Below, in pieces: positions 2,532 through 5,508 of a stretch of DNA of 64,000 bases (positions within the stretch are counted from its first letter, which is position 1; every line of letters starts with the position of its first letter). Source of the DNA: Acidobacteriota bacterium (GTDB lineage: Bacteria; Acidobacteriota; UBA6911; RPQK01; JAJDTT01); the NCBI GenBank assembly GCA_965263035.1, contig OZ253580.1, forward strand, positions 4,704,001 through 4,768,000. The letters are read 5' to 3'. The position numbers were made by a program, and so were the translations under genes. The notes below the pieces were generated by a model. The model was given only the letters and a program-made list of their open reading frames with translations, had not been told where the DNA came from and did not search any database.

Positions 2532-3635
2532 ATGCTGGAAATCGTGGACCGAGGCATCCTCTCTCATGTCCCCGGGCGCGGCGCCTACTTTCCCTGCGTG
2601 AGGCCGCTTCAGGACGGATCCCTGCTGGCGGCGCAGCACGTGGGGAGCGGCTTGTGCTCTCCGGACAATCACATCGAGGTGTTGCGCTCCACCGCTGGGG
2701 GCCGCAGCTGGACCAATGAAGGCAGCATCCACGGCGGTCTCCCGGCGGATGGATGGTGCTACCGGGCGCCCATTATCGCTCCCTTGGAGGATGGCAACCT
2801 GTTGATGGCGGCCGCCCGTTATCTCCTGGACAACGACGAGATGTACAATCCGGCCACCGAGGGATTGAAGCCGACTCAGATGGTCCTTTTCCGCTCTTCC
2901 GATCAGGGCCGATCCTGGTCGGGTCCCGAGGTGGTGCCCAACCCGCTGCCTCCCGAGAAATACGTGAGCAGCCTTTCGGGTCAGCTTCTGATTCTCGCGC
3001 CCGACCGCTGGATGTTTCCGTTCGAGACCTGGAAGCCGGATGGCTACGAGGGGCCGGTGGACCAGAAGGCGGGGGCCGTTTTCTCACCGGATCAGGGACA
3101 GACCTGGGAAGAGTGGTCAGTGGTGGCCGACGACGTGGAGGAACGCCTCCACTACGGTGACCAGATGCAGACTGTGTTGCCGGATGGACGGGTCTACACC
3201 ACCCTCTGGACCCGGACCTGGGGCGTGGGACAGGGAGAGGACGTCAACGATCACTGGGTCGTTTCCGAGGACGCCGGCCGGACCTGGAGCGAACCTCGTC
3301 CCACCAACTTGCAGGGACAGCTCTGTGCCCCCATCGCGCTTCCCGACGGCCGGGTGGCGGCCATCTACAATTTTCGCCGCGAACCCCAGGGGATCCACGT
3401 CGCGATCACCGAAGATCTGGAGAATTACGACGTCGAAAACCAGGCCGTGGTGTTTCGGGCCGGCGAGGAAACCATGACGGCGAAAGCGGTGGACGAGTTC
3501 ATCGACGCCCACCAGAAGATCGCCTTCGGCCGGCCCTGGGGGATCCTCTTGCCGGATGGCGACCTGCTGGTCTACTTCTGGTGCACCGTCGAATCCGTCA
3601 CCCACAACCGCTGGGTCCGGCTCAGGATCTCGTGA
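2532..3635 (+). CDS. Sialidase/BNR (Asp-box) family protein
   Basis: Asp-box motifs STAGGRSW, SSDQGRSW, SPDQGQTW, SEDAGRTW; AAGGA RBS upstream. Confidence 0.75.
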   Translation: MLEIVDRGILSHVPGRGAYFPCVRPLQDGSLLAAQHVGSGLCSPDNHIEVLRSTAGGRSWTNEGSIHGGLPADGWCYRAPIIAPLEDGNLLMAAARYLLDNDEMYNPATEGLKPTQMVLFRSSDQGRSWSGPEVVPNPLPPEKYVSSLSGQLLILAPDRWMFPFETWKPDGYEGPVDQKAGAVFSPDQGQTWEEWSVVADDVEERLHYGDQMQTVLPDGRVYTTLWTRTWGVGQGEDVNDHWVVSEDAGRTWSEPRPTNLQGQLCAPIALPDGRVAAIYNFRREPQGIHVAITEDLENYDVENQAVVFRAGEETMTAKAVDEFIDAHQKIAFGRPWGILLPDGDLLVYFWCTVESVTHNRWVRLRIS

Positions 3636-3746
3636 CGTGCGAATAGATCTCACATGCCAGCCGGTGGGGGAATTCCCACCCGGATTCACATCTTCCAGGA
3701 TTGGGTGCGATCGGTCTCGCGGTCGTCCGTTCCCCGTATTCCGGTT

Positions 3747-3965
3747 TCAGGCGCGCTCACCGGGCTGACGGTCGTCAACGGCTGCCGGAGGCGGGACGGT
3801 GAACCTTTTTCCTTGTTCCTCGGCGGCCATGCGCGCGCGGTTCCAGGATTCCCAGCGCTTGCGCTCTCTGACACGCCCCTCGGCATGCCCCTCGGCATGC
3901 CCCTCAGTACGTCCCTTGGCGAGCCCCTTGGCGTAACGTCGATTGAGATACCATTCCGAAAACAT
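3747..3965 (-). CDS. Small 72-aa protein, stand-alone copy of the C-terminal domain of 4067-4537
   Basis: Near-identical to aa 89-156 of the upstream ORF, with one extra 12-bp EGHA repeat; own purine-rich leader AAGGGCGGGAAAA-ATG. Confidence 0.6.
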   Translation of the reverse strand: MFSEWYLNRRYAKGLAKGRTEGHAEGHAEGRVRERKRWESWNRARMAAEEQGKRFTVPPPAAVDDRQPGERA

Positions 3966-4066
3966 TTTTCCCGCCCTTAAGAAATTCCAAGCGGAAGCCT
4001 GGATACTGTCGGCCGCCTATACTCCTCTGTCGGAGATTAGGGTCCGGTTGGAATCTGAAGAATCTT

Positions 4067-4537
4067 TCACGCGCGCTCACCGGTCTGATGATCGTCAGCG
4101 GCTGCAGGAGGTAGCTTGGTGAAACTTTTTCCTTGTTCCTCGGCGGCCATGCGCGCGCGGTTCCAGGATTCCCAGCGCTTGCGCTCTCTGACACGCCCCT
4201 CGGCATGCCCCTCAGTACGTCCCTTGGCGAGCCCCTTGGCGTAACGTCGATTCAGATACCATTCCGAAAACATCCTACCCACCTCCACGGAAACCACGCT
4301 CCAGGCGGCGACCACGACGACCACGGGAGACAGCCCTCGCGCGATGGCGAGGAACGTTTCCATGTTGCCGTCCTTCGTCCCACTGGCTACCTCATGCCAG
4401 ACGACCAGAGTCGTGGTCACGATAACAAGTGCCACAAAGAGTTTGAAGTAGGTGTCCCGCCATGTCGCCGGGACGCTCCAAATCGACTCTCTGTACCTCA
4501 CCGATTCCTTCTCCATCCCGTGACCGAGGCGCTTCAA
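4067..4537 (-). CDS. Hypothetical protein: two TM helices plus (E/K)G-x-x repeat C-terminal tail
   Basis: Hydrophobic segments LFVALVIVTTTLVVW and PVVVVVAAWSVVSV; tail KGLAKGRTEGHAEGRVRE; start could be the ATG of MEKES. Confidence 0.65.
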   Translation of the reverse strand: MKRLGHGMEKESVRYRESIWSVPATWRDTYFKLFVALVIVTTTLVVWHEVASGTKDGNMETFLAIARGLSPVVVVVAAWSVVSVEVGRMFSEWYLNRRYAKGLAKGRTEGHAEGRVRERKRWESWNRARMAAEEQGKSFTKLPPAAADDHQTGERA

Positions 4538-4761
4538 GCCTTCTCCGAAGGCCGATTTGGAGTCGCGGATCTTCGATCTCGGTATTCGTTCCTACTCCCG
4601 GCAGGAGTCCCGTCAAATCTTGCCTACAATCCAGATAACGAATGAATTTAAGAATCTGCAACCGATTCTCCGGTTATCCAATCGGAACCAGTGATTTGCT
4701 CGGACCTGCGATCTATTCTACCGGATGGCGCGTGGTGAAGGTTCTCGCGGAATCGGGACCC

Positions 4762-5508
4762 TCAGCCGGAGGCGGTTCCCAAGAGGGAGGCGGATTCCCG
4801 GTCCAGATAGAGATGGCAATCGGCGTGGGTCCTCAGTATGGATGAGGGGTGCAGCGGAGTGACTTCGCCTTGCACGCAGTTGCGGACCGCCTCGGCCTTG
4901 CGGATGCCGGGAACCGTGCAGACGATGGACCTGGCCTTCAGGATCTGGCGGATGGACATGGAGACCGCCTGGGCCGGCACCTTGTCGATGCTGGCGAACC
5001 ACCCCTCGGAGACCTGCTGCTGCCGGCAGGGGGCGTCGAGGGTGACCAGGATATAGGGCTCCTCGGTCTCGAAATCGGCGGGCGGATCGTTGAAGGCCAG
5101 GTGGCCGTTCTCTCCGATGCCGATGAAGGCGACGTCGATCGGGCCCTCTTGGATGAGATCTGAGATCCGATGGCATTCGGCCTGAGGGTCGGGCGCCTCG
5201 CCCCGGATGAAGTGGACCTCTCCCGGATGCACCCGATTCACCAGGCGTTTCCGGAGATAGCGGCGGAAGCTGGCGGGGTGGGTTTCGGAGATCCCGGTGT
5301 ACTCGTCCAAGTGAAACATGGTCGTGCGGGACCAGTCGATCGATCGATCCGCGGTGAGTGCCGCCATGAAGTCGAACTGCGAGCTGCCCGTGGCCACGCA
5401 GAATCTGGCGGTCCCCTGCCGGTCGATGGCCTCCCGCAGTTTGGCTGAGGCCCTGGCGGCGGCGGCTTGGCTGGTGGTGGCCTTGTCCTTCTGTCGAACG
5501 ATCTCCAT
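4762..5508 (-). CDS. nagB: Glucosamine-6-phosphate deaminase
   Basis: Motifs ATGSS, FHLDEY, GIGENGHLAFNDP, P-x-S-x-L-x-x-H. Confidence 0.8.
   Translation of the reverse strand: MEIVRQKDKATTSQAAAARASAKLREAIDRQGTARFCVATGSSQFDFMAALTADRSIDWSRTTMFHLDEYTGISETHPASFRRYLRKRLVNRVHPGEVHFIRGEAPDPQAECHRISDLIQEGPIDVAFIGIGENGHLAFNDPPADFETEEPYILVTLDAPCRQQQVSEGWFASIDKVPAQAVSMSIRQILKARSIVCTVPGIRKAEAVRNCVQGEVTPLHPSSILRTHADCHLYLDRESASLLGTASG

Follow-up and report, generated by a model that had tools for sequence, protein, structure and literature searches.

A putative gene-within-gene family of two-helix membrane proteins with stand-alone copies of their cytoplasmic glycine-repeat helix

The window that we analysed is a stretch of 64,000 nucleotides (G000:C1:4704001-4768000) from a host genome of 6.2 Mb and 62% GC assembled as a single contig. 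Near its beginning, the minus strand carries a gene for a 156-aa protein (the large gene, L), followed by a separate gene for a 72-aa protein (the small gene, Ss) that copies the C-terminal part of the large one. The features of the locus, listed in the order of their coordinates, are as follows.

3747..3965, minus strand: small gene Ss, 72 aa, a copy of L residues 89-156, with five Gly units and the 'small-type' tail PPPAAVDDRQPGERA
3873..3926, minus strand: tetrad repeats of the small gene, G14-R31, with the 12-nt unit present twice (3880-3903)
3966..4066, minus strand: intergenic spacer from L to Ss, with a worn Shine-Dalgarno sequence AAGGGCGGG at 3970-3978 and a hairpin at 3986-4003
4067..4537, minus strand: L gene, 156 aa from TTG 4537, or 149 aa from ATG 4514-4516 (Met8)
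4067..4273, minus strand: putative nested S form of 68 aa, starting at the internal ATG 4271-4273 (Met89) and ending at the stop codon of L
4106..4174, minus strand: end motif WxxWNxxRxxAxxxGxxFxxxPP, W122-P144, whose columns are invariant or near-invariant in three family alignments
4193..4234, minus strand: tetrad (GxxxG) repeats of the L gene, G102-R115, four Gly units, from alignment and repeat count
4274..4366, minus strand: TM2 portion, residues 58-88 of a long helix 58-134 that runs into the cytoplasm (AlphaFold2 model)
4281..4286, minus strand: internal Shine-Dalgarno sequence GGAGGT, within codons V-E-V-G, 7 nt ahead of the internal ATG
4382..4468, minus strand: helix 1 (TM1), residues 24-52 (AlphaFold2 model)
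4475..4492, minus strand: N-terminal cytoplasmic RESIWS motif, residues 16-21, a cross-phylum consensus from an alignment of 52 sequences

In the AlphaFold2 model of L, made with 52 aligned sequences (mean pLDDT 74.1, and 96 over residues 121-140), a helix at residues 24-52 is followed by a single continuous helix at residues 58-134 and an extended tail. With TM2 placed at residues 58-88, this model bears out the two-TM nature that the first-pass annotation had read from the letters of the window. L is a small membrane protein of an uncharacterised family. Its anatomy comprises a cytoplasmic N-terminus with the RESIWS motif, a two-TM hairpin, and one long cytoplasmic helix continuous with TM2, in which a variable number of four-residue GxxxG units precedes the motif WxxWNxRRxxAExxGxPFxEPPP. 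Since L orthologues begin at Met8, the ATG at 4514-4516 is probably the true start, giving a protein of 149 aa. Neither window protein has a match in Pfam or NCBIfam (E<=10), the Foldseek search of the L model against the PDB gave no match at E<=0.001 (best E 3.3, which is meaningless for a helical hairpin), and a profile of the C-terminal module built from 17 sequences found nothing in the PDB by sequence at E<=10. A 252-aa frame (P0039) that might have represented another N-terminus fused to the module was rejected, as it is the L gene read in another frame upstream.

The small gene lies within a DNA direct repeat (3745-3975 versus 4065-4283) whose copies are 88% identical across 177 nt and 93% identical across 92 nt, with a single 12-nt indel, TCGGCATGCCCC occurring twice at 3880-3903 and once at 4200-4211. 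The first-pass annotation had described copies differing by one 12-bp EGHA unit and in their tails, and this description is accurate, as is its GGAGGT-N7 ahead of Met89, with GGAGGT at 4281-4286 and the spacer at 4274-4280. It had also put the beginning of the duplicated segment precisely at Met89. High identity does begin at the ATG, but a degenerate match between the copies extends about 25-35 nt further upstream and includes the Shine-Dalgarno (SD) remnant AAGGGCGGG, indicating that the small copy has a worn version of the leader in L. The 72-aa gene at 3747..3965 is indeed separate, but its leader, which the first-pass annotation had called different, is not wholly so. A promoter scan of 3550..4850 returned no promoter-like site, and the single terminator-like hairpin in the same interval, against 1.2 expected, is not significant.

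The 156-aa query matched 11 of 61 genomes at E<=0.01, namely the host, the other eight genomes of its genus (g1), and two of a sister genus with weak matches (E 0.006). L is present in all nine g1 genomes at one syntenic site, with a NagB-like gene (PF01182) on one side and a BNR_2 gene (PF13088) on the other, and one or two adjacent small copies lie behind it in six of the nine species, with Ss orthologues in five species besides the host; G004 has one additional, dispersed small copy. In the window, the flanks also contain, next to the NagB-like and BNR_2 genes, a gene for an 804-aa protein with a weak DUF3604 match (82-2496) and an RraA-like gene (PF03737; 5694-6428), and the neighbourhood looks like one for amino-sugar harvesting. 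All small copies of the genus start with M/V-FSEWY, i.e. M/V-FSEWYLNRRYAK. The sequence GTGGAGGTGGG ahead of the internal start is invariant in the large genes of all nine genomes, the internal start itself being GTG instead of ATG in G006, and at the same distance the small copies have the leader AAGGGYGGG or GAGGTCGG, which is weak in G005. The dispersed copy of G004 (L020:1417-1716) is located far from the main locus, upstream of an M3 oligopeptidase gene (PF01432), and has a GTG start with a perfect GGAGGT-N7; it has kept GGAGGTGGGAAGA-GTG, and its homology ends exactly there. A test of synonymous-site conservation in the genus yielded no separable signal and was powerless, because the entire L gene is too conserved.

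Two types of tail occur in the genus, '..AAADDHQTGERA' in large genes and '..AAVDDRQPGERA' in small genes. In G006 and G008, where small copies are absent, the large gene bears the small-type tail. In the module tree, the large gene of G006 (G006_B) groups with one of the two small copies of G007 (G007_s2; support 0.96), that of G008 (G008_B) joins the G001 and G004 small copies (support 0.95), and G007_s1 groups with the large genes. Taken together, the tail types and the tree indicate that copies are born by tandem duplication and lost by fusion-deletion, with such fusion-deletions in two species, G006 and G008. For six orthologous small copies, compared in 15 pairs, the dN/dS ratio is 0.17; for the tails of seven large genes, compared in 21 pairs, it is 0.18. 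The small ORFs are thus real genes. The number of Gly units per module ranges from 3 to 7 among the nine g1 species, and it differs between L and the adjacent small copy in 7 of 7 copies.

Sequencing runs containing all or part of the stretch number 20, from nine studies; four of them are recorded as RNA, two of which are labelled 'sponge metagenome'. Contigs from RNA libraries (X12 and X15 from one study, X19 from another) cover both genes, which attests presence, not transcription; such contigs cannot show RNA ends, and DNA carry-over is possible. The contigs break at the repeat, and portions of the stretch are without cover in single runs. The X15 contig (depth 55) has a 12-nt deletion at 4195 (4195-4211), equal to one tetrad unit of L, so the repeat number is polymorphic among near-identical strains.

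Close full-length relatives are few, with 41 proteins at E<=0.01 among 81 candidates, 38 of them at least 70% identical. With the C-terminal module profile (17 sequences) as query, the cluster representatives number 457 at E<=1e-3, of which 25 reach E<=1e-10. Common to the long members are RESIWS, a pair of TM helices, a Met, a basic stretch, (GxxE)n and WxxWNxRRxxAExxGxPFxEPPP. Many of the short members have their start precisely at this Met of the TM2 end, and in other lineages there are up to 15 repeat units. We found no informative PHROG match and no credible PADLOC match for 12 family members (the best, with E 0.005, was to a 'putative invertase' over the repeat only), and in the ESM Atlas only unnamed 'hypothetical protein' clusters, mostly from Chloroflexota. 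Viral contigs gave 52 pattern matches, none of which was confirmed by tblastn.

Of the 343 stretches that a genome scan with the pattern [AED]WN[RAN]RR[MIL]xAE returned, confirmation was obtained for 268. The best 80 of these 268 correspond to 76 loci, nearly all from Dehalococcoidia/Chloroflexota and Candidatus Poribacteria MAGs, with a few from Gammaproteobacteria. The HMM located the module in 75 of the 76 loci, in a total of 130 frames, 91 'big' and 39 'small'. A big frame is followed by one to three small frames on the same strand (patterns B-s, ss and sss) in 25 of the 75 loci derived from these best 80 stretches; four other 'small' frames lack an upstream big one, and some of them are truncated or mis-scored big genes. 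As the arrangement recurs at one syntenic locus in six of the nine species of the genus and in 25 of 75 unrelated loci, it is, on this comparative footing, more than a product of chance. In the big-small pairs, homology starts 2-15 codons ahead of the Met at the TM2 end, in varied amino-acid contexts, and the repeat number of the downstream copy differs from that of its L gene in 28 of 31 pairs. Decaying remnants also occur, such as a 40-aa frame without a start (L030) and one copy minus the repeats (L081).

The distribution is patchy. In the phylum of the window, the module was found in 5 of 401 evenly drawn genomes, all belonging to g1, which is one of 227 genera (15 best candidates per genome scored); among genomes around the Dehalococcoidia MAG G435 it was found in 22 of 301, with adjacent big and small open frames in about ten, and a gammaproteobacterial genome (G437) has three module matches. 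This patchy, multi-phylum, multi-copy pattern suggests horizontal spread of the family. G435 itself (4.6 Mb, the genome of locus L041) has 25 module-profile matches scattered over its chromosome. Of the 12 matches in a Poribacteria MAG (G436), an array of 3.5 kb (L033, pattern BsBBBs) accounts for six. Six proteins (P0044, P0045, P0048, P0053, P0064 and P0154) contain 2-4 modules per ORF and are fused arrays of one unit; in P0154 (479 aa), a unit made of a TM segment and a WxxWY..PP module is repeated four times.

We assigned Pfam families to 123 neighbouring ORFs of 33 loci (L022-L055 except L050) and searched 141 ORFs of 39 loci with PADLOC, together 264 of 284 ORFs; the remainder are ORFs over 900 aa and those of the last loci, and several of the loci are mutually orthologous. 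The neighbours are mixed, with many housekeeping genes and a minority of DNA methylases, R-M fusions, nucleases and transposases, from which we claim no enrichment. Symbiont genomes of one marine-sponge microbiome are described as generally enriched in R-M and TA genes (PMC5649159). A recurring neighbourhood is seen in the Dehalococcoidia 'MSLYQAMVNRFV' subfamily (L024, L031, L035, L043, L044, L049 and L051), with an N6_N4 DNA methylase upstream, fused to Mrr_cat or HNH in two loci, and a NUDIX NADH-pyrophosphatase-like gene downstream. Genes for eukaryotic-type leucine-rich-repeat and WD40 proteins adjoin family members in Chloroflexota and Poribacteria MAGs (L022:4465-5130, L023:4713-6293 and L046:1325-3178).

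The Met at the putative internal start is conserved. In a MAFFT alignment of the 91 big genes (best 80 of 268 stretches), the column of Met89 contains M in 80 sequences, I in five, L in three, V in two and T in one. The duplex with the 16S tail in G000 reaches -14.1 kcal/mol before Met89, compared with -7.5 before the small gene and -2.9 before Met8, and only 1.7% of the ATGs of this genome reach -11 kcal/mol. In 34 big-small pairs, the 18 nt that precede the Met bind the 16S tail at -8 kcal/mol or better in 20 of the big and 15 of the small genes; as background, this energy is attained at 7.0% of random positions (n = 6800) and at 7.6% of ATGs (n = 2881). Moreover, in 55 of the 91 big genes the strongest SD-like site outside the repeats precedes an in-frame start near the TM2 end, with 15.6 expected (in-frame start within 40 codons of the repeats, expectation taken from all windows), and since the relatives are not independent, the binomial p of this test is only a guide. 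On the other hand, 11 of the 91 genes have no Met in this column and 36 have their best SD elsewhere, and SD usage in G000 is modest by a crude test, at 16% of 1327 first start candidates versus 10% of all ATGs. The first-pass annotation had proposed to look among homologues for a conserved internal SD and ATG and for orphan C-terminal copies, and both recur, the Met in 80 of 91 big genes and the B-s (ss, sss) patterns in 25 of 75 loci. Most likely, a conserved internal SD and ATG at the exit of TM2 in the long gene gives rise to a free form of the cytoplasmic module. For the stand-alone downstream copies, comparative evidence in the form of intact frames, a conserved start position and purifying selection shows that they, too, are expected to yield a free small protein.

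Glycine repeats at every fourth residue mediate helix pairing. A helix of 45 residues that stands alone and bears a stripe of glycines, as in the model, would be expected to require a partner. When residues 82-156 of L were predicted in complex with the 72-aa protein, the ipSAE was 0.51 and that of the best of three controls was 0.02; contacts agreed between runs to at least 86%, and the pLDDT of the partner was at least 75. With 157 solved complexes and 215 mismatched pairs as the yardstick, 116 and 2, respectively, reach the mark for such scores, and scores of at most 0.60 are found in only 18 of the 157 solved complexes and in both of the passing mismatches. The verdict on this prediction, a kind of check that the first-pass annotation had proposed, was 'weak support'. 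We consider it rather probable that this is a genes-within-genes family in which a two-TM protein interacts with free copies of its own cytoplasmic glycine-repeat helix, and we infer both the separate translation of the free forms and their pairing with L. By way of the glycine-repeat face, the free forms would associate with the helix of L that is identical to their own, and this pairing would set the self-association of L. Tandem duplication generates new downstream copies, of which only those bringing along the internal start site would survive; such copies are lost again through fusion-deletion, and slippage of the 12-nt unit would change the length of the helix.

It might be argued that there is no internal initiation at all, the Met and the E-G or G-G residues being kept for the sake of the protein, and that the small genes, as ordinary partial paralogues, have expression signals of their own and begin at the Met merely because an ORF needs a start Met. 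The conserved E-G or G-G residues do supply part of the SD signal, since recodings that preserve the amino acids still have a median of -6.85 kcal/mol against a background of about -3.3; the weak genome-wide SD usage in G000 and the powerless synonymous test in the genus fit this argument as well. However, the real upstream SD beats the median of 300 synonymous recodings in 84% of the 91 big genes, being in the top quartile in 63%, where 25% are expected, and in the top decile in 29%. This indicates that codon choice, and not the residues alone, favours the SD. Furthermore, the small copies retain 2-15 upstream codons, now non-coding, that hold the SD, and the dispersed copy L020 is cut exactly at it; we thus regard this explanation as unlikely. 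It is very improbable that unequal crossing-over in slippage-prone repeats left the small ORFs behind as functionless debris: some remnants do decay, as in L030 and L081, but the dN/dS of 0.17 is on a par with that of the L tail, and intact frames with a conserved start position are found across six species and many phyla.

Other explanations accept the free forms and differ in what these do. Free S might complete a mixed L/S membrane complex by stoichiometric co-assembly rather than inhibit L, as in the channel MthK, whose free RCK domains, made from internal Met107, interlace with the tethered ones (PMC2920069). L is likewise predicted to be a two-TM protein with a tethered cytoplasmic module. 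However, no channel or RCK signature was found in Pfam, and a variable repeat number with mismatched downstream copies is unexpected for a fixed geometry, which makes co-assembly distinctly unlikely in our estimate. Alternatively, the family might be an Rpn-like toxin-antitoxin or anti-phage module, in which L oligomers would damage the membrane, a nested S with the same repeat number would hold L inactive until infection or stress removes it, and the repeat number would decide which S fits which L. All the formal hallmarks of Rpn bar homology speak for this, i.e. a putative iTIS, tetrad variation, downstream S copies and fusion loss (PMC10400941), together with up to 25 modules in one 4.6-Mb genome, the patchy occurrence in one of 227 genera of the phylum of the window and in 22 of 301 genomes around G435, and, at a minority of loci, the presence of a DNA methylase, R-M or nuclease gene within the nearest four ORFs. 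Against it stand the lack of a PADLOC or PHROG family and of confirmed members in viral contigs, the stable synteny between sugar-metabolism genes in nine of nine species, and the mostly housekeeping neighbours; the symbiont genomes of one sponge microbiome are, moreover, rich in R-M genes anyway (PMC5649159). On balance, such a module appears somewhat unlikely, and a role in toxin-antitoxin action or defence in general is for us a tentative idea drawn by analogy and of rather low probability. The same doubt applies to a bolder version, in which the family would form a second, non-homologous 'antitoxin within toxin' class: a membrane L checked by its own internally started S, the count of GxxxG tetrads serving as a length code for the fit of S to L, and horizontal spread through at least four phyla of one habitat, with 25 copies in a single genome. 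A shared habitat is hinted at by the Poribacteria and Dehalococcoidia hosts and the two 'sponge metagenome' RNA runs, which point to marine sponges.

A commentary on the Rpn work asks whether dominant-negative regulators made from an iTIS are 'a tip of a proverbial iceberg' (PMC10400984). The family described here is unrelated to Rpn and has the same hallmarks, namely a conserved putative internal start site, hypervariable tetrads in the shared helix, spawned copies and fusion-deletions, and these sit on a membrane protein, not on a nuclease, so the question becomes testable on a second system. This set of hallmarks may also serve as a search pattern for further nested regulators. The family is without a model in Pfam, NCBIfam, PADLOC and PHROGs. 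It comprises hundreds of clusters and has many copies in some symbiont MAGs. A literature search with the end motif FDEPPP found no related publication, and among the matches listed for literature from 2022 on about internal initiation, small C-terminal membrane proteins or antitoxins, only the Rpn work was relevant.

Among known systems, phage holin/antiholin dual-start genes are small membrane protein genes with two starts and opposing products. The two starts of a holin gene, however, are separated by a few codons at the N-terminus, and each of its products is a membrane protein; the present family has no PHROG match. The Yae1/Lto1 deca-GX3 family (PF09811) and the GxxxG segment of FliH are similar in having a glycine at every fourth residue of a soluble helix. 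The best PF09811 match (P0091) reached 26.0 bits against a cut-off of 27.5, the window proteins having none, and the FliH matches were also below threshold (E 0.009-0.04); only the repeat is alike, whereas the flanking motifs are unrelated and there is no family membership. The K+ channel MthK (PMC2920069, citing Jiang et al. 2002) likewise has two TM segments and, tethered to them, a cytoplasmic domain that is also produced free from an internal start and assembles with the tethered copies. It thereby offers a precedent among membrane proteins in which the role of the nested free domain is co-assembly and not inhibition. Unlike MthK, the proteins described here have no pore signature and no RCK fold, with no ion-channel or TrkA/RCK match in Pfam for the window proteins and 25 family members, and they have variable repeats and separate downstream genes.

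To our knowledge, a layout in which the tail of a protein is remade both through an internal start and by downstream copies is otherwise found in one unrelated bacterial anti-virus toxin family. This family, reported by Zhong et al. (2023, PMC10400941), is RpnL/RpnS/RpnSs, known from Escherichia coli and others. Its N-terminal part is a PD-(D/E)XK nuclease, whereas ours is a two-TM hairpin, and its post-repeat module is a three-helix DUF4351 bundle, whereas ours is a single helix with a Pro-rich tail. The Rpn S-domain (PF14261) has no match in the two window proteins or in 25 family members, and neither PDDEXK_2, DUF4351 nor the PDB gave a sequence match. The parallel to Rpn drawn by the first-pass annotation is partly supported: the genomic hallmarks have counterparts here, and homology is not supported. 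RpnS is reported to be made from an internal start, and its first helix contains 4-aa repeats whose number varies between strains; in RpnC, one extra KGIE repeat on either partner abolished the block, and an extra repeat on both restored it. If this rule applied here, the downstream copies would be poor partners of the adjacent L, as their repeat number departs from that of L in 28 of 31 pairs and, within the genus, in 7 of 7 copies. The likeness extends over a gene within a gene for the free C-terminal domain (putative in our case); a long helix with 4-aa repeats of Gly and charged residues, variable in number between close strains; a patchy, multi-copy distribution; and extra S genes directly downstream, which in Rpn derive from their own upstream gene and are removed when the N-terminal part fuses to the downstream copy (PMC10400941). 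With downstream S genes, fusion loss and variation of the 4-aa repeats all found here too, the parallel to RpnL/RpnS is closer than had been noted before.
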